Assembly (NCBI GenBank): GCA_963814395.1
Contig: CAWFCS010000013.1
Span: 860,799 to 924,798 of the forward strand
From: an uncultured Acidobacteriota bacterium
Lineage (GTDB): Bacteria; Acidobacteriota; Vicinamibacteria; Vicinamibacterales; UBA2999
Direction of reading: 5' to 3'
Length of the DNA stretch: 64,000 bases
The notes beneath the pieces are model-generated. The model saw only the letters and a program-made list of their open reading frames with translations, had not been told where the DNA came from and searched no databases. Of the stretch, positions 42,163-62,640 are shown one piece after another (position 1 is the stretch's first letter; the number at the start of each line of letters is the position of its first letter). The position numbers and the translations under genes are program-made.

Positions 42163-42423
<261 letters not shown>

Positions 42424-46313: not shown

Positions 46314-46355
46314 AGCGGGCATTATAATGAGCGCGGTTTCCGTCAGCCCTTCCGA

Positions 46356-47572
46356 GTGGTTCCCGTGCGCGCGCTCTGTGCCCTCCTGCTCGTCGCAAGC
46401 GTCCGCCCCGCGGCCGCCCAACCGCCCGACGAGACGCCACCCGGCAGCCGTCGCCGACCGCGTGTCGGTGGGCGGCGAGATCACGGCCACGCTCGGCTCC
46501 GACGACCCCGGCTTCTTCAACTACGCGACCTACGCCTACGATCCCTTGCGCAACGTGCGGGTCGTCGTGGACGCCTCGCTGCGCGCTTCGCGCCAGGTCG
46601 AAGTGCTCGGCGCAACTGCGCACCGACGGCATCTCGCACGCCCGTCTCACCGCGCTCTACGTGCGCGTGCGCCCGTGGCCGCACGCGCCCGATCGACCTC
46701 CAGGCCGGACGCGTGCCGACCACCTTCGGGATGTTCGGGCGCAGCGGCTACGGCAGCGACAATCCACTCGTCGGCCGGCCGCTCGCCTACGGCTATCTCA
46801 CTTCGCTCCGGCGCGATGCCCTGCCCGCCACCACCGCTGATCTGATCCGTATGCGCGGGCGCGGCTGGCTCGCCAGCTTCCCCATCGGCAATCCCGAGGC
46901 CGCCCGCGGCCTGCCGATCGTCGATGCCGACAGTTGGGATACGGGCGTGCAGGCGCGCATCGCGCGCGGCGCCGTGGAGTGGGTGGGGGCCATCACGCAG
47001 GGTTCCTTGGGCAGCCCGCGGCTGCACGACGACAACGGTGGGCGCGCGCTCGCCACACGCGTCGTGGTCCGCCCCACGGCCGCCGTCGGTACTCGGGCGG
47101 CTCGGCCTCGCGCGGGGCGTATCTGTCGCGAACGCTTGCCGGCGACGTCGCGGCCGATGTGACCATCGACGGATTCCGGCAGACCGCGGCGGGCGTCGAC
47201 GTGCTGGTGGCGGCCGGGCGCTGGACGTTGCGTGGTGAGCTGATCCAGAGCCGCTGGACGCTGCCCGCGACGCACGACCGGGCCCTGGCGGGAGGCGTGC
47301 GGGCCACGGCCGGTTGGCTCGAGGGCCGCCTGCGCGTCTTCCCGGGCGTCGATTTGGCGGCCCGAGCCGAGCGCCTGCGCTTCTCCGAGATCGCCACCCC
47401 CTCGGCGAGGCAGCCCTGGGACTCGCCGGTGTCGCGCCTCGAGGCCGGGGTCTCGGCCACGCCCGTGCGGCACGTGCGCGTGAAGTTCGCGGTGCAGCGC
47501 AACCGCCGGCCTCTGGGCGGACGCATCCGTCACGACACGTTGCTCGCCGCCCAGGCCGGAGTGTGGTTCTGA
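46356..47572 (+). CDS. Outer-membrane beta-barrel protein, frameshifted
   Basis: Signal; GFFNYATY, LQAGR.P..FG.F, NPLVG.PLAY.Y.T; C-terminal AGVWF. Confidence 0.75.
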
Positions 47573-47574
47573 CT

Positions 47575-48256
47575 ATGCGCAGCGCGCTCCTCGCGCTCGG
47601 TCTGGCCGCAGCGGTGACGTCGGCGTGGGTGGTGCCGCTCGTGGGCCGCGCCCAGCCCGCCCCGGCCGGCAGCATTCGCGGACGGCTCGACATCCGTCGC
47701 CTGGTCGCCCTGCCGCGGCCACGGCCCGGCGTCGCCGAGTTGGGGGGGCGCTTGCCGGTGGCGGTGCCCGACGCGCGGCGCGGACTCGTCTACCTCGACA
47801 GCGCACCGCGCAGCGCCTTCGACGATCGCGAACCCGGCCGCGCTGTGATGGATCAGCGCAACGAGACCTTCGTGCCCCGCTTGCTGGCGGTCACGACGGG
47901 CACGGCCGTGGAGTTTCCGAACAGCGACCTCACCTACCACAACGTGTTCTCGCTCTCGCGCGCGCGCCGCTTCGATCTCGGGCGCTACGCCGCCGGCAAG
48001 TCGAAGGCCGTGCGCTTCGACCGTCCGGGTATCGTCCGCGTGTTCTGCGACATCCACTCGCACATGTCGGCCTTCGTCGTCGTGTTCAACCATCCCTATT
48101 TCCGTGTCACCGACGTGGACGGCCGCTACCGCATCGACAACGTGCCGCCCGGCAGCTACACCATCGTCGGGCTGGTACGAGGGTGAGGCGCGCGTGCAAC
48201 GCACCATCACCGTGGCCCCGGGCGCGGCCACTGAACTCGACCTGGTGGTGCCGTGA
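47575..48256 (+). CDS. Secreted type-1 cupredoxin + carboxypeptidase-regulatory-like domain protein, frameshifted near 48170
   Basis: DQRNETFVP, FPNSD..YHNVFS, VFCDIHSHMSA (H...C-x2-H-x2-M), TD.DGRY.I..VPPGSY. Confidence 0.85.
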
Positions 48257-50022
48257 TTCCCGGCCTGGGCTCGCTGCGCAGCCGCATCTTCCTCGCCAGC
48301 ACGCTGCTCGCCACGGCCTCGATTGGCTCGGCGCTCTACTTCGTGAGCGCGCTGCTCACGCAGCAGGTCGAGGCCGAACTGCAACGCGACCTCACCGAAG
48401 CAGCCGGTCTGGTCGACCAGCAGAGCGAGACGCTCTTCGAGACGGTCACCCGCACCGCTGTGTTGATTGCCGACCTGCCCAAGTTCAAGGCGGCGCTCGA
48501 AACCCGCGACCCGCCCACCATCGAACCCATCGCCCGCGACTATCTGCAGCAGGTCGGCGCCGACCTCGTCGTGGTCAACGACCGCGACGGCCGGCGCCTG
48601 GCCGTGGTGAGTGCGCCCGCGCAGCGCGACGATCTGACCGGCGCGGCGCTCGATCTCGGCGCCGCCACGAGCCAGGCGCCCGGCGAGGATTTCTGGCCGT
48701 ATCCAGGCGGGGTGCTGCAGGTCGTGACCGTAGCCGTGACCATCGACCTCGAGCGGCCGGAACTGCTCGGCACGCTCTCGATGGGCTACCTGCTCGACGC
48801 CGCGCGGGCCACCGACCTCAAAGGCCTGACCGGAGCCGACGTGGCGTTTGCGTTTGCCGGCGCGGTGCGTGCGTCGTCGTTCCCACTGGATCTGTTGCCC
48901 GCCGTGACGGCGTGGTTCAAGGCCGAGCCTCACGCGCCGGTCGTGCCGGTGGGCACCGAGCAGTATTCCGCGCTCGCCCGGCCGCTAGCCCGGGCCGGCC
49001 GCGCGCCGGCGCGCGACGGCCTCGTGCCCCATGCCATCGTGTTGCGCTCGCGCACCGAGCGGATGCGCACGCTGGGCACGATTCGCGCGGCCCTCGCCGG
49101 CGTGGCGCTGGCCACGGTGGGTCTGGCGGCGCTCCTCAGCTACGCGATTGCCCGCACCGTGACCAAGCCCCTCGCCACGATCACCGCGCACATGCGCGAG
49201 GTGGCCGCCACCGGCGACCTCACGCGCACCGTGGCACTGCCGAGCACGGCCTGGAACGACGAGGACGCCGTGCTGCTGGCCTCGACCTTCAACGTGCTCA
49301 CCGAGTCGGTCACGACCGCGCAGCGCGATGCCGTGCAGCGCGAACGCCTCTCGGCGCTCGGCCGCCTGTCGACGGTGATCGCCCATGAGATCCGCAACCC
49401 GCTGATGATCATCAAGGGCGCGCTGCGCCAGCTCGCGCGGCCCGAGGTGACGCCCGCCGACACCCGCGACGCCGCGGCCGACATCAACGGCGAGGTCGAC
49501 CGGCTGAACCGCGTGGTCAACGAGGTGCTCGACTTCGCCCGGCCGATCCGCTTCGATTGCGTGCCGGCGTCGATCAACGACGTGTGCCGGTCGGCCCGCG
49601 ACGCAGTGCTGGCGGCCACGCCGGTGCCCGACGTGGGCCTGGCCCTCGACCCGCACTGCGGCCACCTCACGACCGACGCCGAGCGGCTGCGCACGGTGCT
49701 CGTGAACCTGCTCACGAACGCTCGTGCCGCCGTGGAAGGGCGCCCGGCCGGCGACGGCCCCGTAGTCGTGCTGGGCACGCGGCGGGCCGGTGCGCAGGTC
49801 GTGATCACGGTGCGCGACCGCGGGGTCGGGATTCCGGCCGACGACCTGGGCCGGGTGTTCGATCCATACTTCACCACGCGCCGCACGGGCAGCGGGCTCG
49901 GCCTGGCGATCAGCAAGAACGTGGTCGAGGGCCTCGGCGGTACCATCACGGTGTCGAGCGACGTGGGCTCCGGCACCGAGATCCGGGTCGTGCTGGGCGA
50001 CTCGCCCCTGGGACGCGTCTGA
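48253..50022 (+). CDS. Sensor histidine kinase (periplasmic Cache-like domain, HAMP)
   Basis: Two TMs; AHEIRNPL, NLLTNA, DRGVGI, FDPYFTT, GSGLGL. Confidence 0.95.
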   Translation: MIPGLGSLRSRIFLASTLLATASIGSALYFVSALLTQQVEAELQRDLTEAAGLVDQQSETLFETVTRTAVLIADLPKFKAALETRDPPTIEPIARDYLQQVGADLVVVNDRDGRRLAVVSAPAQRDDLTGAALDLGAATSQAPGEDFWPYPGGVLQVVTVAVTIDLERPELLGTLSMGYLLDAARATDLKGLTGADVAFAFAGAVRASSFPLDLLPAVTAWFKAEPHAPVVPVGTEQYSALARPLARAGRAPARDGLVPHAIVLRSRTERMRTLGTIRAALAGVALATVGLAALLSYAIARTVTKPLATITAHMREVAATGDLTRTVALPSTAWNDEDAVLLASTFNVLTESVTTAQRDAVQRERLSALGRLSTVIAHEIRNPLMIIKGALRQLARPEVTPADTRDAAADINGEVDRLNRVVNEVLDFARPIRFDCVPASINDVCRSARDAVLAATPVPDVGLALDPHCGHLTTDAERLRTVLVNLLTNARAAVEGRPAGDGPVVVLGTRRAGAQVVITVRDRGVGIPADDLGRVFDPYFTTRRTGSGLGLAISKNVVEGLGGTITVSSDVGSGTEIRVVLGDSPLGRV

Positions 50023-50024
50023 CG

Positions 50025-51389
50025 ATGACACCAACCGGCCGTGTGCTCCTCGTCGATGACGAGGAGAAGATTCTGAAGACCCTGGGCCGCGCCCTGCGCG
50101 ACGAGGGGCACCTCGTGACGACCGCGTCGCGCGCCCTCGACGGCCAGCGCCTGCTCGTGGAGCAGTCGTTCGACCTGCTGATCATCGACTACCGCATGCC
50201 CGACCGCTCCGGCATGGACGTGGTGAAGGAGCTGGTGGCGGCCACGCCCGATGGCGAGCGCCCAGCGGTGGTCATGATGACCGCCCATGGCAGCGTGGAG
50301 AGCGCCGTCGAGGCGATGAAACTCGGCGCCCACGACTACCTGCAGAAGCCCTTCGAGATCGACGAACTGCTGCTCACGGCCCGGCGCGCACTGGCCGCGC
50401 AACGCGCGCGCACCGAGCTCAGCTACCTGCGCAGCGAACGCGATGCCGACTTCGACCACTACGGCATCGTCGGCCGCAGCAAGGTGATGATCGACATCTC
50501 CCGGCGCATCGAGCTCGTGGCCCAGTCGCGCAGCACGGTGTTGCTCACGGGCGAGACCGGCACGGGCAAGGAACTGGTGGCCCGCGCCATCCACGACCGC
50601 AGCCTGCAGCGGCATCTGCCGCTCATCAAGGTGAACTGCGCGGCCATTCCCGACACGCTCATCGAGTCGGAGCTGTTCGGCCACGCGCGCGGCGCCTTCA
50701 CCGGCGCGCAGTCGGCCAAGAAGGGCCGCTTCGCGCTGGCCGACGGCGGCACGATCTTCCTCGACGAGATCGCCACCCTCGGCCTGCCGGTGCAGTCGAA
50801 GCTGCTGCGCGTGCTGCAGGAGCGCGAGTTCGAGCCGCTCGGCAGCGAGCGCACCGAACGGGTCGACGTGCGGGTGATCGCCGCGACCAACCGCGACCTG
50901 CGAGCCATGGCCAACGAAGGCCGGTTCCAGGAAGACCTCTACTACCGTCTGCACGTCATCCCGATCGACTTGCCGCCCCTGCGCCAACGGCTCGACGACC
51001 TGCCGGCGCTCGTCGACCACTTCGTGCAGAAGTTCTCACAGCGGCTGGGCAAGCGCATCACCGGCGTGGACGACACCGCCATGGCGGAACTGCGGCGGTA
51101 TCACTGGCCGGGCAACATCCGCGAACTCGAGAACACCATCGAACGCGCCGTCGTGCTCACGACCGGCCCGCGGCTCACGCCCGACACGGTGTGGGTGATG
51201 GGCGCGGCGACCGCGCCCACCACGGGCCTGCCGTCCCTGCGTCTGCATCAGAACGTGGAATGGGTGGAGCGCGAGACCATCCGGCGGGCGCTCGAGCAGT
51301 CGCGGGGCGTGAAGAAGGACGCGGCCGAGCTCATGGGCCTCAGTCAGCGGGCCCTCAGCCACTACCTGTCGAAGCATCGCATCGACTGA
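50025..51389 (+). CDS. Sigma54-dependent response regulator (NtrC/AtoC family)
   Basis: REC domain; [34 protein letters not shown]; Fis-type HTH. Confidence 0.96.
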
Positions 51390-51395
51390 CGTCGC

Positions 51396-51429
51396 TTACG
51401 GCCGGGGTAAGTGATTACGTCCCACGTAA
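51396..51429. promoter_or_regulatory. Tandem TTAC-N7-GTAA palindromes (candidate enhancer/UAS)
   Basis: TTACggccgggGTAA (51396-51410) and TTACgtcccacGTAA (51415-51429). Confidence 0.65.
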
Positions 51430-51502
51430 TCCAGTCGTGTGGATGCGACGCCCGGTCACGCGAAAACCTCAGCAGATCGTCAGCTCGCGCCGCGCGCCCA
51501 CA

Positions 51503-51518
51503 CGGCATCCCGCTTGCA
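51503..51518 (+). promoter_or_regulatory. Sigma54 -24/-12 promoter
   Basis: CGGCATCCCGCTTGCA: GG (51504-5), N10, GC (51516-7), with TTGCA, about 45 bp before ATG 51564. Confidence 0.8.
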
Positions 51519-51563
51519 GTTGTGGACACCGTCTAGATACGCCGGGCGGCCGGCACGAATACG

Positions 51564-51986
51564 ATGAGATTCCTGCGAACCCTGTTGGTGTTCGTCACTG
51601 TTGCCGTGGCGGGGATGGCGCTCCTCCCTGAAGCGTTGGCATACGTCAACGCGGGGAAGGACCCCGCCACGGCATACGCGCCCCTCTCCCCTTCCACCGT
51701 GAAGACGTTCGAAGTCGTGGCCAAACGGTTCGCCTTCGAGCCCGCTGTCATCGACGTGACCCAGGGCGACCGCGTGCGCCTGCTCGTCACGTCGGCCGAC
51801 GGCGTGCACGGCGTGGGCATCCGCGCGCTCAAGATCAACACCTTCGTGCCACGCGGCGGCAAGACCGTCACCATCGAGTTCACGGCCACGGAGGCCGGCA
51901 CCTTCCCCATCGTCTGTTCGGAAGCCTGCGGCGACGGTCACGCGGACATGCGTGGATCGCTCGTTGTCACGGCCGCCGGCCAATAG
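51564..51986 (+). CDS. Stand-alone secreted CuA-type cupredoxin (COX2 C-terminal-like)
   Basis: TSADGVHG...CSEACGDGHADM = H...CxExCGxxHxxM. Confidence 0.9.
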   Translation: MRFLRTLLVFVTVAVAGMALLPEALAYVNAGKDPATAYAPLSPSTVKTFEVVAKRFAFEPAVIDVTQGDRVRLLVTSADGVHGVGIRALKINTFVPRGGKTVTIEFTATEAGTFPIVCSEACGDGHADMRGSLVVTAAGQ

Positions 51987-52009
51987 CTCACCCCAGATTC
52001 GAGACACCC

Positions 52010-52459
52010 ATGCGACAACTGCGCCTGCTAGCGTGTGTACTGCCCCTGACGGCCCTTCTCTCCGGCTGCGACGAACAGTTGTCGGATCTCACTGGCCCGA
52101 CGCCCAATCTGCAACCGACCTTCGCCAGCATCCAACGCGAAATCTTCAACACGCAGGACGCCTCGGGACGGCTGGCGTGCACGCAGTGCCATGTGGCCGG
52201 CGGCGCCGCCGCAGGCACCGGACTCTTCCTCACCGACGCAACCTCATACGCCGCACTGGTCGGCGCACAGAGCCGCCTGCGGCCGGGCGAGACGCTCGTC
52301 ATCCCCGGCGATCCGGACAATAGTTATCTCGTGCGCAAACTCGAAGGCGGACCGAACATCAACGGGCTCCGCATGCCTCGCAACACGGGACCGTTCCTGA
52401 CCCAGGGGCAGATGCTGGTCATCCGCCGCTGGATCACGGCAGGCGCTGCCAACAACTAG
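52010..52459 (+). CDS. Monoheme c-type cytochrome lipoprotein
   Basis: Lipobox LLSGC; CTQCH; VIPGDPDNSYL..KL; RMP distal Met; WI..GA. Confidence 0.88.
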   Translation: MRQLRLLACVLPLTALLSGCDEQLSDLTGPTPNLQPTFASIQREIFNTQDASGRLACTQCHVAGGAAAGTGLFLTDATSYAALVGAQSRLRPGETLVIPGDPDNSYLVRKLEGGPNINGLRMPRNTGPFLTQGQMLVIRRWITAGAANN

Positions 52460-52495
52460 GCTGCGCGCCCAGACTTTTCTTGACAGGAGCCTACC

Positions 52496-53440
52496 GTGAC
52501 CTCAATTCTCTCGACTGCCACCCTGGCGCTGGCGCTGCTCGTCGGCGCCGCCCACACCAGCACCGCTGCGCCGCAGAACAACGCCCAGGCCTCGCCGACG
52601 CAGACCGGAGGCCCGGCGCCCAATCCCGCCGAGACCACCCCTTCGGAGGCTGCCGCCGAGGCCACTGCCGCCAAGGCCGCCGCGACCGCCGCCGAACAGG
52701 AGGATGACCCGGATACCGACGTGAACCGGGCGCAGCCCGACTTCACCATCGTGGGCCTGCCGACCACGCTGCGTCTGCCGCGCCACAAGAGTGCCTTCCG
52801 CATCACCCACCGCTTCGGCCGTCCCCTGGGCGAAGGCAGCCTCGGCAGTCTGGCCGAAGACTTCTTCGGCTTCGACGGCGGCGGCGTGATCGGCTTCGAG
52901 TACCGCTACGGCCTGTTCAAGGCCACGCAGATTGCCGTGCACCGCACCAACAACCGCACCATTCAGTTCCTGCTGCAGCGCCAGGTCAAGGGCCAGGACG
53001 GCACGTTTCCGCTGTCGATCGACGTCTTCGGCAGCGTCGAAGGCACCAACAACTTCAAGGACAGCTACTCGCCCGGCCTCGGGGTCATCGTGTCGCGTGA
53101 GGTCACCGATCGCGCCGCAATCTACGCGCAGCCGTTCTGGGTGAACAACACCAACCCGCTACCGACCGAACTCGTCGACGACAACAACTCGCTCATGCTG
53201 GGCCTGGGCGCCCGCGTGCGGCTCACGGCGGGGGTCTACGGCGTGGTCGAGGTGACGCCGCGGGTCAACGGCTACGACCCGGGCAACCACCAGATGAGTT
53301 TCGGCATCGAGAAGCGGGCCGGCGGCCACAGCTTCCAGGTGAACTTCAGCAACGCCTTCGGCACCACGTTCGGGCAGATGGCGCGTGGCGGCAACGACGA
53401 CTGGTACATCGGCTTCAACCTGTCGCGCAAGTTCTACTGA
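52496..53440 (+). CDS. DUF5777-like outer-membrane beta-barrel
   Basis: Signal; FRITHRFG, FFGFDG, GFEYRYG, GIEKRAGGHSFQVNFSN, IGFNLSRKFY. Confidence 0.85.
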   Translation: MTSILSTATLALALLVGAAHTSTAAPQNNAQASPTQTGGPAPNPAETTPSEAAAEATAAKAAATAAEQEDDPDTDVNRAQPDFTIVGLPTTLRLPRHKSAFRITHRFGRPLGEGSLGSLAEDFFGFDGGGVIGFEYRYGLFKATQIAVHRTNNRTIQFLLQRQVKGQDGTFPLSIDVFGSVEGTNNFKDSYSPGLGVIVSREVTDRAAIYAQPFWVNNTNPLPTELVDDNNSLMLGLGARVRLTAGVYGVVEVTPRVNGYDPGNHQMSFGIEKRAGGHSFQVNFSNAFGTTFGQMARGGNDDWYIGFNLSRKFY

Positions 53441-53500
53441 CGGCCCCCTGTAACCTGGCGCGGCGTCGCGACGGTCTACACTGGAGCAGGAGCCCTGATC

Positions 53501-53947
53501 ATGCGACGTCTACTCTCGCTCTCGGTGGTCGGCGCGGCGCTGGCCGTTGCCATGGCGTGCGGCGGCGGGGGCGGCAGCAGCCCGACGGCGCCCAGCGGGG
53601 GCGGCGGCACGGGCGGCACGGGCGGCACGGGCGGCGGCACGGGGGGGGCGACGGCCTCGGCCACAATCACCATCGGCGCGAACGGCGTGGCCAGTCCGAG
53701 CACCGTCACGATCACCCAGGGCGGCCGCGTGACCTTCGTGAACAACGACTCGCGCAGCCACGACATGTCGTCGGATCCGCATCCCAGCCACGAAGACTGC
53801 CCGCCCATCGACCAAGTGGGCTTCCTGCAGGCCGGACAGTCGAAGACCAGCGGCAACCTGAACACCGTCCGGGTGTGCGGCTTCCACGACCACAACCTGC
53901 CGACCTCGGCCGGTCTGCAGGGCCGCATCACGGTCGTGGCGCAGTAG
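53501..53947 (+). CDS. Cupredoxin-fold lipoprotein with Gly/Thr linker and His-rich site
   Basis: Lipobox-like AMAC; PSTVTI..G.RVTFVN.D..SH; DPHPSHEDC; CGFHDH; G.I.V. Confidence 0.8.
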   Translation: MRRLLSLSVVGAALAVAMACGGGGGSSPTAPSGGGGTGGTGGTGGGTGGATASATITIGANGVASPSTVTITQGGRVTFVNNDSRSHDMSSDPHPSHEDCPPIDQVGFLQAGQSKTSGNLNTVRVCGFHDHNLPTSAGLQGRITVVAQ

Positions 53948-55544: not shown

Positions 55545-55634
55545 AGATCAACCGATCGGTCGCCACATCCAAAAATCATCAGATCTATGCCTCTAGATCA
55601 TCCGATCACAAGATCACCAGATCACGCGATAACA
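55545..55634. repeat. Octamer-periodic GATC repeat
   Basis: GATC at 55546, 55554, 55582, 55596, 55604, 55612, 55620 (GATA at 55628). Confidence 0.75.
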
Positions 55635-55643
55635 TATCTCTCA

Positions 55644-56549
55644 GTGTCCCTGTCGCCCCTGACCTTCATCCGCCCCCGTGAACCCAAGCCCGACTGGCTG
55701 AAGGTGCGTGCCCCTGGCTCGGAGAACTACCTCCGGCTGAAGGGCATCATGCGCGACCTGAAGCTGAACACCGTGTGCGAAGACGCCCACTGCCCGAACA
55801 TCGGGGAGTGCTGGCACCACGGCACGGCCACGTTCATGATCCTGGGCGATGTGTGCACGCGCGCCTGCGCCTACTGCGCGGTGAAGCACGGCCGCCCCGA
55901 CGCGCTCGACGTGTATGAGCCGGCGCGCGTAGGTGAAGCGGTGCAGGCGATGGCGCTCAAGTACGCCGTCATCACGTCGGTGGATCGCGACGACCTGGCC
56001 GACTGCGGCTCGGGCATCTTCGCGAGCACCATTCGCGAGATCAAGGTGCGTGTGCCCGACTGCCGCGTCGAAGTGCTGATTCCCGACTTCAAGGGCGAGG
56101 AGTCGTCACTGCGTACCGTGCTCGACGCCGGTCCCGACATCCTGAACCACAACACCGAAACCGTGCCGCGCCTCTACCGCATGGCGCGGTCGGGCGGGAA
56201 GTACACGCGCTGCCTCGAGCTGCTCGACCGGGCGCGGCGCTACGCGCCCGGCATCCCCACCAAGACCGGCCTCATGGTGGGCCTGGGCGAGGAAGCACAT
56301 GAGCTCGAACAGGTGTTCAAGGACCTGCGCGAGGTGGGTGTGGCGATTCTCACCATCGGCCAGTATCTGCGCCCCTCGAACGACCACGCGCCGATGACGC
56401 GCTATTACCATCCCGACGAGTTCCGCGAGCTGAAACGCATCGCCCTCGGCCTGGGCTTCGCGCACGTCGAAGCCGGTCCGCTCGTGCGCAGCTCGTATCA
56501 CGCGCACGAACAGGCCGACGCCGCGTCCCTCGCGGCTGCCGTTCGCTAG
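55644..56549 (+). CDS. lipA: Lipoyl synthase
   Basis: KPDWLK, CEDAHCPNIGEC, CTRACAYC, ITSVDRDDL, NHNTETV, VRSSYHA. Confidence 0.97.
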   Translation: MSLSPLTFIRPREPKPDWLKVRAPGSENYLRLKGIMRDLKLNTVCEDAHCPNIGECWHHGTATFMILGDVCTRACAYCAVKHGRPDALDVYEPARVGEAVQAMALKYAVITSVDRDDLADCGSGIFASTIREIKVRVPDCRVEVLIPDFKGEESSLRTVLDAGPDILNHNTETVPRLYRMARSGGKYTRCLELLDRARRYAPGIPTKTGLMVGLGEEAHELEQVFKDLREVGVAILTIGQYLRPSNDHAPMTRYYHPDEFRELKRIALGLGFAHVEAGPLVRSSYHAHEQADAASLAAAVR

Positions 56550-56599: not shown

Positions 56600-59500
56600 G
56601 TGACGATGCTCCCTTTGCTGAGAGTTCTGGCCGCGTGTGTGCCCGTGCTCGCGCTCGCGGCCTGTCAACGCGACACGCCCGCAACGGCGCCGCCGGCACC
56701 CGAAGAGGTGGTCGGCGCCATCAATCGCGGCGTGGCGTACATGGGCCGCTACGATTTCGCCGCGGCGGCGGCCGAGTTCGTCGCGCTCGGGCAGCGACAG
56801 CCCGACTCGCGAGAAGCCTCGCTCAACCTGGCCATCGCCCTCATCAACCGGCAGGGTGACGGTGACGGCGCCGGGGCCGAGCAACTCCTTCGCACGGTCA
56901 TTGCGGATCCGGCCGTGGGCCTGCGCGCGCGCTACGCCCTCGGGTTGCTGCTGCTCTACGGCGGACGGGATGCCGACGCGTTTCCGCTCTTGAGCGAGGT
57001 GGCGAAGGACACGCCTGGCGATGGGTTTGCGGCGTACTTCACGGGGCAGGCGCAACTCGCTGTCTCGCCCGAGCTGGCGCTCGCGTGGTTCATGAAGGCG
57101 CAAGCCGCCACGCCCTTGTTGCGCAGCGCCTACTACGGCGGGTTTCAGGCCTTGCAGCGCCTCGGCCGGCGAGCCGACGCCGCCGCCATGCTGGCCCGCT
57201 TCGAAGGCCTCGCGGGCGATCCGCGGGCGCAGATGGCCGAGTTCAAGTACACCCGCATGGGGCCGCTGGCCATGGCCGTCACCGTGGACGCGCCGATCGC
57301 ACCGGCGGCGCTCCCCCCGGGGCCGCGCTTCCTGCCGGCGGCGCTGATCCCCATGCCCGCCACTGCGCGGTGGCGAACCGGCGGTGACGACTCCCGCTCG
57401 ATCACCGTGGCTGACATCGACGGCGATGGCCAGCTCGATGTCTTTGCCGCGCGCGTGCTCGACGGCGCCGTGCCGAATGCCGTGTTGCTCGGCGCCGACG
57501 GCGGCTGGCGGCTCGACCTCGGCCATCCCCTCGCTGCCGTGGCCGGGGTGCGGGCGGCCCTGTGGGGCGACCTCGACAACGACGGCCGCACCGACGCGGT
57601 GCTCGTGCGGGCCCGCGGTGGCTCGGCGGTGTGGCGGCAGTCAGCGCCGAACGTGTGGCGCGACGTCACGGCCAGCAGCCAGGCCCTCACGCCGCGTCTC
57701 GACGGCATGGACGGCGCGCTCGTGGACGCGGACCACGACGGCGACCTCGACATCTGGCTGACCAACGCCTCCGGCGCCAACGAATTGCTGAACAACAACG
57801 GCAACGGCACGTTCCGTCCCCTCGCGGCGCGAGCCGGCCTCACCGGCGCTGGCCGGGGCTCGATCGGCACCGCCTTCGCCGATCTCGACAACGATCGCGA
57901 CCACGACCTGGTCGTGCTCAACGCGGCGCCGCCGCACGACGTGTTCGTCAACGACCGCGTGTGGACCTATCGCCGCGCCCCAGGCTTCGCCACGTTCGCA
58001 GCGGCATCGTTGGCGGCTGTGGTGAGCGCCGATCTCGACGCCAACGGGCAACCCGAGCTGTACACCAGCGGCCCACGCGGCCTCGAACGATGGAAGCCCG
58101 ACGGCGCCGGCGAGTGGCGGCCATTCACATTGGCCGCCGCAGACACCGCAGCCACCGCATCTGCCACCGGCGTCAGGCTGGCCGTGGCCGACACCAACGG
58201 CGACGGCGCGCTCGAGCTGCTCGCGTCGCGCGGCGCCGAGTGGGCCGCCTTCGACGTCACGGCCGACGGCACCACCCCGGCCGCGGCGACATTCGCCGCC
58301 GGCGCCGGTGTTCGCGGGTGGACCGTGGCCGCGCTCGATGCCGCGCAGGGCCCGTCGGTGATTGGCGCGGGCGGCGACGGTCTGATGGCGTGGCCGCCAG
58401 GACCCGGCCGTCACCCCTACGTCACGATCGCCGTGACCGGTCGCGACAGCACGAGTGATCAGCTGCGATCGAACGTGTCTGGCGTGGGCACGCGCCTGGC
58501 CGTGCGGGTGGGCTCGCGCTGGACGGCCTTCGATACGGCGGGTGGGCACGGGGGCCCCGGCCAGAGTCTGCAACCGCTGGCCGTCGGCCTGGGCGGCGCG
58601 CCGCAGGCCGATTTCGTGTCGCTCGTGTGGCCCGACGGCGTGATGCAGACGGAGATGGCGCTGGCGGGCAGCCAGCGCCACACCATCGCCGAGACGCAGC
58701 GCCAGCTCTCGAGCTGTCCTGTGCTCTTCGCCTTCAACGGCACGTCGATGGCCTTCGTCACGGACATCCTCGGCGTCGGCGGCATTGGCTTCCTCGAGCG
58801 CCCAGGGGTCTACAGCGCGCCGTTCCCGCGCGAGCACGTGCTGTTCCCGGAAGGCAGCATCGCCCCCCGCAACGGCCGCTATGCCCTCGTGATCGGCGAG
58901 CCCATGGAGGAAGTGACCTACCTGGATCGCGCCTCGCTCGTGGCCTACGACCTGCCGCCAGGCTGGCAGATGGCCCTCGATGAGCGCAAGGCCATTGCCG
59001 AACCGATGCCCACGAGCGCGCCGCTCTTCTACCGCGAGGAACGCCGCCCCGTGCGCGCCGTCAACGACCGCGGCGAGAACGTCATGGCGCGCATCGCCGC
59101 CGCCGACCGCGACGCCGCGCCCCCCGGCGCGGCCGATCCGCGCTTCATCGGCATGACCGCGCCGCACACGCTCGAGCTGGAGTTCGCCGGGCCGCTCGAC
59201 CGCGGGCCGGGGCGACCGGTGCTGATGATCGATGGCTGGGTCGAATATCCCTACGCCCAGACGGTCTTTGCGGCGTGGCAGGCTGGCGCTGCCTTCGCGG
59301 CGCCGTCACTCGACGCGCGCGATCAGGCGGGCCGCTGGCACACCGTGGCGCCCGAGTTCGGCTACCCTGCCGGCATGCCACGGCGCATGACCCTGCCGCT
59401 CTCGCGCCTGCCCGCCGGCACGACCGCGCTGCGGCTGCGCACCACGCAGGAGATCTTCTGGGATCGCGTCAGCGTGATCTACGCCGAGCCCGCGCCGCCG

Positions 59501-59926
59501 GTCGTCACCCGGCGGATGGCGCTCGTGTCGGCCACGCTGCAGGAGAGCGGCTTTGCCGCCCGCACCACCGGACCGCAGCGCACGCCGCACTACGACTATG
59601 CGCGGCGCGCGCCGCTCTTGGATACGCGCCATCCGCGCGGCCGTTACACCCGGTTTGGGGCGGTCGACGCGCTCGTGGCCTCGGCCGACTCGGCGCTGGC
59701 GATCGTCGGGCCGGGTGAAGACGTGCGGCTCGAGTTCGCCGCGCCAGGCGACGCCGCGCCCGCAAGCTGGACGCGCCGGATCGTGCTCGAAGCCGACGGC
59801 TGGTGCAAGGACATGGACCTCTACACGAAGGACGGCGACACGGTGGCCCCGCTGCCCGGCATCGACACGCCGGCGCGGCGGCGCCTGCACGACGCCTTCA
59901 ACACGCGCGACGCGAGCGGCCGATGA
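56600..59926 (+). CDS. Large lipoprotein: TPR + FG-GAP/VCBS repeats + ASPIC/UnbV (CRTAC1-like) + C-terminal extension
   Basis: Lipobox LAAC; DxDxDGxxD repeats; SNVSGVG.R...VGLG...WPDG; SSCPVLF; DGWCKDMD. Confidence 0.9.
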   Translation: MTMLPLLRVLAACVPVLALAACQRDTPATAPPAPEEVVGAINRGVAYMGRYDFAAAAAEFVALGQRQPDSREASLNLAIALINRQGDGDGAGAEQLLRTVIADPAVGLRARYALGLLLLYGGRDADAFPLLSEVAKDTPGDGFAAYFTGQAQLAVSPELALAWFMKAQAATPLLRSAYYGGFQALQRLGRRADAAAMLARFEGLAGDPRAQMAEFKYTRMGPLAMAVTVDAPIAPAALPPGPRFLPAALIPMPATARWRTGGDDSRSITVADIDGDGQLDVFAARVLDGAVPNAVLLGADGGWRLDLGHPLAAVAGVRAALWGDLDNDGRTDAVLVRARGGSAVWRQSAPNVWRDVTASSQALTPRLDGMDGALVDADHDGDLDIWLTNASGANELLNNNGNGTFRPLAARAGLTGAGRGSIGTAFADLDNDRDHDLVVLNAAPPHDVFVNDRVWTYRRAPGFATFAAASLAAVVSADLDANGQPELYTSGPRGLERWKPDGAGEWRPFTLAAADTAATASATGVRLAVADTNGDGALELLASRGAEWAAFDVTADGTTPAAATFAAGAGVRGWTVAALDAAQGPSVIGAGGDGLMAWPPGPGRHPYVTIAVTGRDSTSDQLRSNVSGVGTRLAVRVGSRWTAFDTAGGHGGPGQSLQPLAVGLGGAPQADFVSLVWPDGVMQTEMALAGSQRHTIAETQRQLSSCPVLFAFNGTSMAFVTDILGVGGIGFLERPGVYSAPFPREHVLFPEGSIAPRNGRYALVIGEPMEEVTYLDRASLVAYDLPPGWQMALDERKAIAEPMPTSAPLFYREERRPVRAVNDRGENVMARIAAADRDAAPPGAADPRFIGMTAPHTLELEFAGPLDRGPGRPVLMIDGWVEYPYAQTVFAAWQAGAAFAAPSLDARDQAGRWHTVAPEFGYPAGMPRRMTLPLSRLPAGTTALRLRTTQEIFWDRVSVIYAEPAPPVVTRRMALVSATLQESGFAARTTGPQRTPHYDYARRAPLLDTRHPRGRYTRFGAVDALVASADSALAIVGPGEDVRLEFAAPGDAAPASWTRRIVLEADGWCKDMDLYTKDGDTVAPLPGIDTPARRRLHDAFNTRDASGR

Positions 59927-62640
59927 GCCTGCCGGCAGGGTCCCGCTACTCGGTGATCGGCGCCGGCACGCGCTGGCTGCTCTACGCCGTCTACGCGTGC
60001 GTGGCGCTCCTCACCGCTACGGCCGTGTATCTCGGCGGCGTCACCGCGGCCGAATGGGCCAGGAGCGCACGCTACCAGGGCTACGTGTATCAGTGGGTGG
60101 TGCTCACGCACCTGGCCGTGGGGCTCCTCATCCTCGCGCCGTTCGTGGCCTTCGCCGTGGCGCATCCGCTGGCGGCCCGCACCCATCCCAATCGCCGCGC
60201 GGCCCGCGTCGGCTACCTGCTCGCGGCGCTCTCTGTCGTCGTGCTCGTGACCGGCCTGGCGCTCATGCGCGTGGCGGGCCTCGAACTGCGCCAGCCGGCC
60301 GCGCGCACCACCGCCTACTGGCTGCACGTGATCGTGCCGTTCGCCGCCGCGTGGGCGTTCCTGCAGCACCGCCGCCGTGGACGTCCACTGCGTGCCGGTG
60401 CGGCGTGGGGCTGGGCCATGGCCACCGCCGCCGTCGTGCTCGTCACGGCCGTGGCCGACGCGCGGCTCAGTCGCGCGCCCGACCTGGCGGGCGCGCCGGC
60501 CACGTTCGGTCCGTCGTTCGCGCGCACGGCCACGGGGCGTCCCATCCCGGCCAGCGCGCTCATGGACAACACCTACTGCGCGGAATGCCACTCTGATGCG
60601 CACCAGGGCTGGCTCGCGAGCGCGCATCGCTTCAGCTCGTTCAACAATCCGGTCTACGCCGCCAGCGTCAAGGAAACGCGCAAGGTCATGCTGGCCCGCG
60701 ACGGCAACGTCGACGGCAGCCGCTGGTGCGCGGGGTGCCACGACCCGGTGCCGCTCTTCTCGGGCGCGTTCGGCCGGGCCGACTTCGACACCGAAGGCGA
60801 CCCCACGTCCCAAGCCGGCATCACGTGCACGTCGTGCCATGCCATCGAGCGCGTGAACAGCACCCGCGGCAACGGCGACTACACGATTGCCGAGCCGCGG
60901 CACTACCCGTTTGCCTTCAGCGAGAACGCCACGCTGCGCGCGCTCAGCCAGCAGCTCATCAAGGCCAAGCCCGACTTTCACAAGACCACGTTCCTGAAGC
61001 CGCTGCATCGCACGCCCGAGTTCTGCTCCACCTGCCACAAGGTGCACATTCCCGGCGCGCTCAACGACTACAAGGAGTTCCTGCGCGGACAGAATCACTA
61101 CGACAGCTTCATCCTGAGCGGCGTGTCGGGACGCGGCGCCCGCAGCTTCTACTACCCGCCCAAGGCCGAGTCGCGCTGCGCCGGCTGCCACATGCCGCTC
61201 AAGGCGTCTGGCGACTTCGGCGCGCAGCCCTTCGATGCAAGTGGGGCGCTCAGCATCCACGACCACCGCTTCGCCGGCGGCAACACCGCCATTCCCTTCC
61301 TGCGCGGCGAGACCGAGACGGTCGCGGCGCAGCAGGCGTTCCTCGACAAGGCCGTCACCGTCGACCTCTTCGGCCTGCGCGAAGGCGGCACGGTGTCGGG
61401 CCGCCTGCTGGGTCCGCTCGACGGCGCCACGCCGGCGCTCACGCCGGGCGCGCGCTATCTGGCCGAACTCGTGGTGCGCACGCGCAAGGTCGGCCACCAC
61501 TTCACGCAAGGCACGGCCGACTCGAACGAGGTGTGGGTGCAGGTCACGGTGAAGGCCGGCGACACCGTGATTGGCCAGAGCGGCGCGATCGGCCCGGATG
61601 GGCGGGTCGACCCGTGGTCGCACTTCACCAACGTCTACATGCTCGACCGGCAGGGCCGCAAGGTGGACCGGCGCAACGTGCAGGACATCTATGTGCCGCT
61701 CTACGACAAGCAGATTCCGCCCGGGGCGGCGCAAGTCGTGCACTATGCCTTCGACGTGCCCAAGGGCGCGGCCGGCCCAATCACCATCGACGCCCGGCTG
61801 CTCTATCGCAAGTTCGACCTGACCATGATGCGCTTCACGAAGGGCGACGACTATCGCATGGACCTGCCGGTGACGACGATCGCCGCCGACACGCAGAACC
61901 TGCCCGGCGGCGGCGCGGCGGCGTCCGCCCAGCCCGTCTGGGAGCGCTGGAACGACTACGGCATCGGCCTGCTGCTCGAAGGCAACGCCGGCAGCGACAA
62001 GGGCGAGCTGCGGCAGGCCGAGGCGGCGTTTGCCGAGGTGGAGCGGCTCGGTCGCGCCGAGGGCCCCCTCAATCTGGCCCGCGTGTACCACAAGGAAGGC
62101 CGGCTCGACGAAGCGGCGCAGGCGCTGCGGCGCGCTACCGCGGCCGGCGCGCCGCCCTGGACGGTGGCGTGGATGAACGGGCTCGTGAACAAGGAGAACG
62201 GCCACCTCGACGAGGCCATCGCCAACTTCACGGCGGCACTGGGCGCCAGCTCACCGGCGCTGACCGAACGTGGCTTCGACTTCAGCCGCGACTACGAGGT
62301 GCTGAACGAACTGGGCCAGGCGCTCTTCGAACGCGCCAAGCAGGAACGCGGTGCCACTCGCGCCGAGGCGCGGGCCGCGCGCCTGCGCGAGGCCGCGGCG
62401 GCCTTCGACCGCACGCTGGCCATCGACACCGAGAACGTCACCGCCCACTACGCGCTCAGCCTGATTCACGGCGAGCTCGGCGACCAGACGCGCGCCGCCA
62501 CGCACCGCGAGGCGCACCTGCGCTACACCGCCGACGAGCAGTCGCGCGGCCGCGTCATCGCCATCCACCGCGCGGCCAATCCCGCCGCCAACCACGCCGC
62601 CCAGTCGGTCGTGATCTACGAACTGCAGCGCGTCCAGTGA
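59923..62640 (+). CDS. Membrane-anchored pentaheme c-type cytochrome with C-terminal TPR
   Basis: About 5 N-terminal TMs; CAECH, CAGCH, CTSCH, CSTCH, CAGCH; TPR helices; ATGA overlap. Confidence 0.9.
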   Translation: MSLPAGSRYSVIGAGTRWLLYAVYACVALLTATAVYLGGVTAAEWARSARYQGYVYQWVVLTHLAVGLLILAPFVAFAVAHPLAARTHPNRRAARVGYLLAALSVVVLVTGLALMRVAGLELRQPAARTTAYWLHVIVPFAAAWAFLQHRRRGRPLRAGAAWGWAMATAAVVLVTAVADARLSRAPDLAGAPATFGPSFARTATGRPIPASALMDNTYCAECHSDAHQGWLASAHRFSSFNNPVYAASVKETRKVMLARDGNVDGSRWCAGCHDPVPLFSGAFGRADFDTEGDPTSQAGITCTSCHAIERVNSTRGNGDYTIAEPRHYPFAFSENATLRALSQQLIKAKPDFHKTTFLKPLHRTPEFCSTCHKVHIPGALNDYKEFLRGQNHYDSFILSGVSGRGARSFYYPPKAESRCAGCHMPLKASGDFGAQPFDASGALSIHDHRFAGGNTAIPFLRGETETVAAQQAFLDKAVTVDLFGLREGGTVSGRLLGPLDGATPALTPGARYLAELVVRTRKVGHHFTQGTADSNEVWVQVTVKAGDTVIGQSGAIGPDGRVDPWSHFTNVYMLDRQGRKVDRRNVQDIYVPLYDKQIPPGAAQVVHYAFDVPKGAAGPITIDARLLYRKFDLTMMRFTKGDDYRMDLPVTTIAADTQNLPGGGAAASAQPVWERWNDYGIGLLLEGNAGSDKGELRQAEAAFAEVERLGRAEGPLNLARVYHKEGRLDEAAQALRRATAAGAPPWTVAWMNGLVNKENGHLDEAIANFTAALGASSPALTERGFDFSRDYEVLNELGQALFERAKQERGATRAEARAARLREAAAAFDRTLAIDTENVTAHYALSLIHGELGDQTRAATHREAHLRYTADEQSRGRVIAIHRAANPAANHAAQSVVIYELQRVQ

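Follow-up and report, generated by a model that had tools for sequence, protein, structure and literature searches.

Described routes for electrons across the outer membrane keep their haems inside a wide barrel, and in MtrAB and PioAB a decahaem cytochrome occupies a large one. Here we analysed an eight-gene cluster (g1 to g8) in a 64,000-nucleotide stretch of DNA, hereafter the window, from an uncultured Acidobacteriota bacterium of the order Vicinamibacterales (assembly GCA_963814395.1, contig CAWFCS010000013.1, positions 860,799 to 924,798). Its sensor half (g1 to g4) encodes a predicted porin, a blue-copper protein, a histidine kinase and a sigma54 activator, and its output half (g5 to g8) a CuA protein, a monohaem cytochrome c, a beta-barrel of the family DUF5777 and a His-rich lipoprotein. 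All eight co-oriented genes proposed in an initial annotation of this DNA were recovered from open reading frames, profile matches and motif location, and the identities it gave to g1 through g7 were confirmed. The cluster is real, conserved and, in the literature searched, undescribed. We consider it quite probable that it serves envelope electron transfer in one direction or another; the particular form that we favour, with somewhat less than even confidence, is an outer-membrane electron-transfer station in which electrons move inward to CuA and haem c, then onward to oxidases encoded elsewhere. More tentatively still, DUF5777 could be a beta-barrel cytochrome b, probably a dimer, that carries two b haems on its lipid-facing wall and passes electrons across the outer membrane without a multihaem pore protein, with swappable CuA, haem c and copper lipoproteins plugging in and, in Vicinamibacteria, a switch made up of porin, blue-copper protein and kinase.

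Compared with characterised systems, the cluster works like a minimal barrel-carrier conduit, yet it belongs to none of the Cyc2, Mtr/Pio, Fox and curA groups. It shares with MtrAB, PioAB and MtoAB (PMC10654088) the combination of a barrel and electron carriers in one operon, whereas it has one haem motif, no multihaem wire and a plugged 12-strand barrel which, judged from its model, is likely too narrow to sheath a cytochrome or form an Mtr- or Cyc2-type conduit; the single motif and the 12 strands exclude it from MtrAB/PioAB. Cyc2 (PMC8406198) also joins one haem c to an outer-membrane barrel, DUF5777 fusions share its domain order, and g1 shares the OprO/OprP porin fold on which Cyc2 is modelled; in contrast, the 16-strand g1 carries no haem, it is an unrelated barrel of 12 strands that has the haem partner, and CuA can substitute for the cytochrome. 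Cyc2 membership was rejected because CxxCH is absent from all 98 g1-family sequences, g7 has 12 strands, and the Cyc2 motif AXPXFAR[Q/K][T/Y], as given in PMC8406198, occurs in 0 of 98 g1 and 0 of 49 g6 sequences. The g6 protein is homologous to each haem domain of FoxE from Rhodobacter ferrooxidans (5mab; PMC10654088), with CxxCH and a conserved Met, and its profile matched both domains (E 2.5e-10 overall, weak per-domain scores of about 20 bits each), but it differs in having one haem, a lipid anchor and no FoxY/FoxZ-like neighbours, and with one CxxCH and a match to one domain it falls outside the FoxEYZ dihaem group. These likenesses to Cyc2 and FoxE would suit energy-yielding oxidation of Fe(II) or Mn(II), which we nevertheless regard as improbable, given the missing haem and Cyc2 motifs, the low per-domain scores over a fold common to PSCyt1-type domains and the lack of an adjoining FoxY/FoxZ-like gene. 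The barrel also occurs in 64 of 151 genomes of Bacteroidota (the phylum of a Bacteroidales record) and in 84 of 301 of Acidobacteriota (a tally that includes the unpublished genome G082), phyla mostly known as heterotrophs.

The CorSR/curA system of Myxococcus xanthus (PMC3707914) resembles the cluster in its sigma54 two-component system, His-rich cupredoxin and lone monohaem cytochrome c, and differs in that curA has a multicopper oxidase and a Cu-ATPase, with no barrel listed, whereas two barrels, CuA and a type-1 partner are found here; the lack of a multicopper oxidase or Cu-ATPase in the operon led us to reject curA/CorSR membership. The resemblance raises the alternative of a copper or iron uptake, storage or tolerance operon in which g2 senses copper, g8 binds it and the barrel is a channel, and to this may be added the His/Asp cluster that replaces the type-1 site of g8, an SCO/CusF gene 5' of the cluster in one relative (L087) and the presence of PcoB among the fold matches of g7 (Z 11.9, root-mean-square deviation (rmsd) 3.6, 171 aligned, rank 17). 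We give this alternative only a small chance, since the cluster encodes neither a multicopper oxidase nor a Cu-ATPase or efflux protein, conserved His, Met and Cys are missing from the barrel lumen, the conserved His pointing outward, and synthesis of a CuA protein consumes copper. Copper handling, one of two functions first proposed for the locus, is therefore not favoured.

No paper naming DUF5777 was found, most subscription papers and all supplements lying outside the search. Queries on a Vicinamibacter porin-cytochrome, on barrels with haem b, bis-histidine or YceI, and on Acidobacteria cupredoxin with CuA returned nothing on the system in titles and abstract openings, and the papers listed for DUF3034 and for Leptospira LIC11213/LIC11211 offered, as listed, nothing relevant. 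The statement that no characterised system has this layout held in these searches; a description under locus tags could exist.

The DUF5777 barrel and its lipid-facing wall

The g7 protein matched DUF5777 (PF19089) with 98.6 bits against a gathering cut-off of 23.1 (atlas 0.98), and its AlphaFold model is a 12-strand barrel with an N-terminal plug (predicted local distance difference test, pLDDT, 92.5). Its best fold matches were KdgM (4pr7), FapF (5o65), VhGalP, NanC (2wjr) and COG4313 (4rl8), with Z of 16.8-18.8, rmsd of 2.2-3.5 and identity of 7-13%; Foldseek ranked OmpF first with low TM-scores, the best TM-scores being those of FapF and NanC. The resemblance to KdgM, FapF, NanC and COG4313 lies in predicted fold and size and extends over the plug for FapF and COG4313, whereas identity is low, sequence and profile searches of the PDB with g7 gave no match, and conservation in DUF5777 lies on the lipid face and not in the pore.

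Conservation was mapped on 60 distant barrels, 29 from Acidobacteriota (less than 40% identical to g7, 10 closer rows having been dropped) and 31 from Bacteroidota. His105 and His278 form the only invariant His columns (59/59 and 60/60) and stand beside equally invariant Arg150 and Arg311 (60/60 and 59/59); the four residues occur jointly in 58 of the 60 barrels from the two phyla, both exceptions being gapped rows. Strands 1 and 3 carry His105 and Arg150 at their outer ends, strands 11 and 12 carry His278 and Arg311 at their periplasmic ends, and all four residues fall in the lipid-facing register of the hydrophobic alternation, with near-invariant Phe residues on the same side. Entropy at outward positions was 0.87-1.47 bits in strands 12, 11, 1 and 3, compared to 2.3-2.6 bits in strands 4-6 and 8-10. 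The lumen was variable (1.8-2.8 bits) except for some Arg, Glu, Asn and Gly residues. Two b haems whose propionates point toward water would be expected to show such a signature, one His together with one Arg at either face of the membrane, and in the predicted register the arrangement agrees with the layout of dihaem membrane cytochromes b, in which two His-ligated b haems lie one near each membrane face. The His105/Arg150 pair on the outer face and the His278/Arg311 pair on the periplasmic face would thus each hold a b-type haem. With a single His at each level of a wall, two barrels paired as a dimer would give bis-His ligation most simply. Alternatively, the two His may share one haem between them or belong to an enzyme site.

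The wall may instead mean that the barrel is not a wire at all, the His/Asp/Arg residues forming a lipid-facing enzyme site in the style of LpxR, OMPLA or PagL, or a groove that displays the neighbouring lipoprotein or a fused domain on the cell surface. OMPLA and PagL have a Ser-His pair on the lipid face, and in LpxR an outer cleft is lined by metal-binding His and acidic residues. LpxR (Z 15.4, rmsd 3.3, 174 aligned), OMPLA (Z 12.8) and autotransporter barrels (Z 13-16) are among the fold matches of g7, the conserved face crosses the strand 1/12 seam, the barrel is the sole recognised output gene at three loci (L244, L250, L265), and the lipoprotein slot is taken by varied small domains. 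On the strength of the fold match, His105 and Asp127 could correspond to an LpxR-type site. No invariant Ser or Cys column was found in the barrel alignment, which removes the nucleophile of an OMPLA- or PagL-type serine hydrolase, and we rejected that candidate. With His/Arg pairs at both faces and with partners in two phyla that are mostly redox carriers, an enzymatic or display function appears quite unlikely to us.

Interchangeable carriers and neighbours of the barrel

The g5 protein fits the CuA definition of a His followed by Cys-x3-Cys-x3-His-x2-Met (ligands H82, C118, E120, C122, H126 and M129), and 32 of 34 homologues have the full ligand set. The g6 family has CxxCH in 44 and Cx4CH in 5 of its 49 members, with Met122 invariant. 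The g8 protein, a His-rich cupredoxin lipoprotein in the initial annotation, has that fold but by its ligands is not a blue-copper protein: in a weak alignment with plastocyanin (E 8e-5), Asp130 stands at the type-1 Cys position and Leu139 at the Met position. Its His cluster and Cys100/Cys126 pair, kept in all 28 homologues, would give a disulphide and a His/Asp metal site. A solitary g8 paralogue is present in the genome at G000:C6:281664-282050 (L275).

The link between barrel and carriers is supported by natural fusions of DUF5777 with cytochrome or CuA domains. Among 40 Acidobacteriota loci chosen out of the 84 to spread over families, 13 have a CxxCH domain in-frame with the barrel; counting domains within 2 kb as well raises this to 24, compared to 3 of the 40 when the opposite strand is scored and a background of 9.5%. 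The best 30 Bacteroidota loci had a haem motif within 1.5 kb on the same strand in 23 cases and on the opposite strand in 2. A g6-type domain is fused to the barrel at L164, L165 and L173, and a CuA domain at 7 of 53 loci of the class; nine longer barrel homologues comprise three with fused CuA (P0123, P0125, P0126), one double barrel (P0121; a second tandem pair is at L216) and five seeming read-through artefacts. At L172, L192, L196, L197 and L201 a CxxCH domain of about 160 residues (no Pfam match; Reeler-like by eye) is fused to DUF5777, and L199:6803-8065 and L202:7211-8425 carry a fused N-terminal haem domain that by eye resembles the haem region of Cyc2, without its defining motif.

To avoid a bias toward g6, we anchored a survey of the class on the barrel, which was matched in 51 of 151 genomes and gave 53 loci after exclusion of the window, five same-genome duplicates and split matches in G248 and G538; 4 of the 53 are cut at the 5' end. 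The output genes were g5 at 34 loci, g8 at 26 and g6 at 11, the sensor genes g4 at 31, g3 at 30 and g1 and g2 at 27 each, and all eight genes were present at 2. The DUF5777 barrel is thus the constant part; the sensor half is present at roughly every second locus, and one carrier stands in for another. These interchangeable carriers, together with the 12-strand barrel, its unconserved lumen and the loci where it is the sole recognised output gene, do not support the fixed porin-cytochrome-cupredoxin conduit put forward at first.

The eight-gene form is mostly confined to this genus. A g6 match was found in 31 of 61 genomes searched and in 16 of 18 within the genus, the closest relatives of g6 coming from Acidobacteriota or Vicinamibacterales. 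In the 16 same-genus genomes with g6, all eight genes stand in the same order in 11, which is more than chance; 4 are interrupted by contig ends, and in the remaining one (L035, genome G006) g6-g8 are kept at the same site with g1-g5 missing there. The cluster lies between a ferredoxin gene (window 42163-42423) and a lipoyl-synthase-like gene (55587-56549, named by eye), and the same two genes flank it in L039, L046, L047, L049 and L050, which suggests vertical inheritance. DUF5777 was found in none of five genomes with distant g6 relatives, and none of the other output genes was seen beside distant g6 relatives at L095-L133; the g6 domain is therefore also employed outside barrel clusters.

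Neighbouring genes bear on the direction of flow. The BcnA/LcoA system pairs a YceI lipocalin with a cytochrome b561 against lipid peroxyl radicals (PMC9113575). It is like the present cluster in its envelope redox role, and a YceI gene is found beside a Bacteroidota DUF5777 barrel (L204; YceI and OB-fold neighbours confirmed by Pfam at one such locus), so that the barrel could take the place of cytochrome b561; it is unlike in that LcoA is a cytochrome b561 membrane protein and not a barrel, and in that no YceI gene is found in this cluster. An outer-membrane counterpart would run outward, with quinol electrons passing through cytochrome and CuA to the barrel and reducing lipid peroxyl radicals or an outside acceptor. 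At L067:2742-6643 a cytochrome and barrel pair stands directly 5' of cytochrome c, cytochrome c7 and molybdopterin-oxidoreductase genes resembling alternative complex III, and at L189:6901-11344 the barrel lies downstream of a cytochrome b/c fusion in one operon. Cu/Zn superoxide dismutase (SOD) and CusF-SCO genes lie 5' of the sensor half, and a Haem_bd gene 3' of the barrel, in L087 (2910-4302 and 11576-12043) and L089. A further barrel operon, at L200:5871-9621, contains an octahaem and two monohaem proteins. We think outward flow unlikely for this cluster, which lacks a quinol oxidase or YceI gene, the supporting neighbours being single loci; oxidases normally receive electrons at high potential through carriers such as CuA and His/Met haem c.

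Sensor half, promoters and gene content

An intact g1 relative (L064) was modelled as a 16-strand porin (pLDDT 87), with OprP (Z 26.6, 301 aligned) and OprO (Z 26.3) as its nearest fold matches, at an rmsd of 3.3 and about 300 aligned residues. A PDB sequence search with g1 gave no match, and a homologue search gave 631 matches, none of the 120 listed having a Pfam family. The type-1 ligands of g2 are H122, C158, H161 and M164, and the H..C-x2-H-x2-M pattern is kept in 27 of 27 homologues. Four g2 paralogues are present in the genome: two lie directly 5' of HAMP-bearing membrane proteins, one of which has an HD output domain, and a third follows a barrel-like gene. The reuse of the cupredoxin and sensor pair with different outputs supports the idea that g2 feeds the kinase, and g2 is likely the redox or copper input of g3; g1 and g2 together may feed it. 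With HisKA in g3 and the receiver, AAA+ and HTH domains and GAFTGA of g4, the pair conforms to the definition of an NtrC-type sigma54 two-component system. All four scores against NCBIfam curated cut-offs (ZraS 170/479, AtoS 188/646, ZraR 389/760 and AtoC 457/714 bits) fall below the cut-off, and orthology to ZraSR or AtoSC was rejected.

The proposed division into a sensor and an output half agrees with a -24/-12 promoter and an activator site conserved between g4 and g5. The promoter element is found within 230 bases of the g4 stop at 43 of 46 distinct loci, compared to 4.8% of shuffles. Sigma54 control, first proposed for the whole locus, thus stands for g5-g8 but not for g1-g4: no sigma54 site was found 5' of g1 at any of 26 loci, which rules it out for the sensor operon, and TATAAT-like boxes are seen by eye at this place in many of the 26 relatives. 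The tandem site between g4 and the promoter is the only double site in the analysed genome (5.95 Mb, 76% complete), in which no second one marking a wider regulon was found; there are six single sites, two of them here. Of 121 genomes in the order, 37 contain its exact pattern, compared to 1 match for the reversed control, and 30 tandem-site loci include 24 with a nearby sigma54 promoter and 16 with a barrel gene within about 1.5 kb, the remainder leading mostly to small blue-copper or His-rich lipoproteins (by eye). From the position of the site, g4 would be the protein that binds it. At L277-L280, L284, L286, L290, L297, L298 and L300 the activator site and a sigma54 promoter precede CHRD-like, blue-copper or His-rich lipoproteins, again by eye.

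Six single extra bases break g1 and g2 in the window (46452, 46611, 46681, 47087, 47094 and 48172). These frameshifts are assembly errors, because all six extra bases are missing from near-identical contigs of X1, a run that may be the source sample, and of X2, and four of them from X4, the latter two runs belonging to other studies. No RNA run was listed among those carrying the sequence. Gene decay was ruled out on the same grounds and because g1 is intact in 23 relatives; frameshifts are also numerous in the window outside the cluster.

A profile search found no CoxI, NosZ or multicopper-oxidase match within the window, as the initial annotation had stated for the locus. Oxidases and NosZ are encoded on other contigs: there are CoxI loci on C10 and C28 and a Sec-type clade II NosZ on C10, besides six Cu-oxidase_3 matches. 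At G000:C10:105166-110632 a CoxII/CoxI pair precedes Rieske-like, cytochrome b-like and octahaem genes, and window positions 56600-62640 encode a TPR/FG-GAP/ASPIC-UnbV lipoprotein and then a membrane-anchored multihaem (c554-like) TPR protein.

Table 1. Genes and predicted regulatory elements of the cluster, in window coordinates
Feature	Position	Strand	Description
TATAAT	46323..46328	+	likely sigma70-type -10 box of the sensor operon, from sequence
g1	46365..47572	+	predicted 16-strand OprO/OprP-type porin; no Pfam match, no haem motif; five single-base assembly errors
g2	47575..48256	+	type-1 (blue) cupredoxin with weak CarboxypepD_reg match; one assembly error near 48172
g3	48253..50022	+	histidine kinase; weak dCache and HAMP matches, HisKA, HATPase; His378
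g4	50025..51389	+	NtrC-type sigma54 activator: receiver (Asp55), sigma54 activator domain (GAFTGA at 223), HTH_8
Tandem palindrome	51396..51429	+	TTAC-N7-GTAA-N4-TTAC-N7-GTAA, predicted activator site between g4 and promoter
Sigma54 promoter	51502..51518	+	-24/-12 element, GG 51504, GC 51516; between g4 and g5
g5	51564..51986	+	stand-alone CuA protein; signal peptide likely
g6	52010..52459	+	monohaem c lipoprotein, His/Met type; lipobox Cys20, CxxCH 57-61, Met122
g7	52496..53440	+	DUF5777, predicted 12-strand barrel, N-terminal plug; invariant His105, Asp127, Arg150, His278, Arg311
g8	53501..53947	+	His-rich cupredoxin-fold lipoprotein; lipobox Cys20

Direction of electron flow and significance

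In the reading that we favour, a small solute would enter through the porin g1 and alter the redox or copper state of g2, which would signal to the kinase g3; phosphorylated g4 would then bind the tandem site and open the sigma54 promoter, and the products of g5-g8 would form an outer-membrane station for one-electron transfer. A reductant or radical, located on the surface or within the lipid of the outer membrane, would give up electrons that pass through the barrel to g6 and g5, and from these to haem-copper oxidases or NosZ encoded elsewhere, guarding the redox state of the envelope, with g8 as an exchangeable metal-binding surface partner and not a blue-copper carrier. The substrate and the direction of flow are both ones that we infer: inward flow is favoured because CuA and haem c carriers normally feed oxidases and because the barrel tracks CoxI in Bacteroidota, and an envelope-protective purpose because of the SOD, SCO, Haem_bd, CHRD and YceI neighbours, each found at single loci.

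Several observations weigh against this reading. The quinol-oxidising neighbours at L067 and L189 point to outward flow, and the association with CoxI in Bacteroidota (barrel in 64 of 136 genomes with CoxI compared to 0 of 15 without) is confounded by kinship and genome size. Carriers appear to be optional, none of g5, g6 and g8 being present at 9 of the 53 class barrel loci; a haem motif lies within 2-3 kb at only 19 of these, and 16 of the 40 Acidobacteriota loci have no CxxCH within 2 kb, 5 of the 16 having a Cx4CH domain. The lipid anchor of g6 (window 52067-52075) reads Cys-Asp-Glu, and Asp-Glu follows the lipid Cys in 36 of 49 family members. In E. coli, Asp-Glu at this place is an inner-membrane retention signal, which fits badly with direct contact between g6 and the barrel; the anchor of g8 reads Cys-Gly-Gly, and from these signals the two lipoproteins may be sorted to different membranes. 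As to the wall itself, the in/out orientation was taken from strand alternation, not coordinates. Barrels of the outer membrane often conserve their first and last strands for the sake of assembly, and this accounts for part of the low entropy.

DUF5777 is a narrow barrel with invariant His on its predicted outer wall, present in two phyla abundant in soil and water, and if haem is bound on that wall, it would represent a new class of conduit, categorically different from those described. The blue-copper partner g2 may reveal how a kinase reads a redox signal from outside, and the locus offers direct test points in His105/His278 and in a defined activator site. If DUF5777 is indeed a beta-barrel cytochrome b, a quarter to two-fifths of the sampled Acidobacteriota and Bacteroidota would possess an unrecognised route for extracellular electron exchange.

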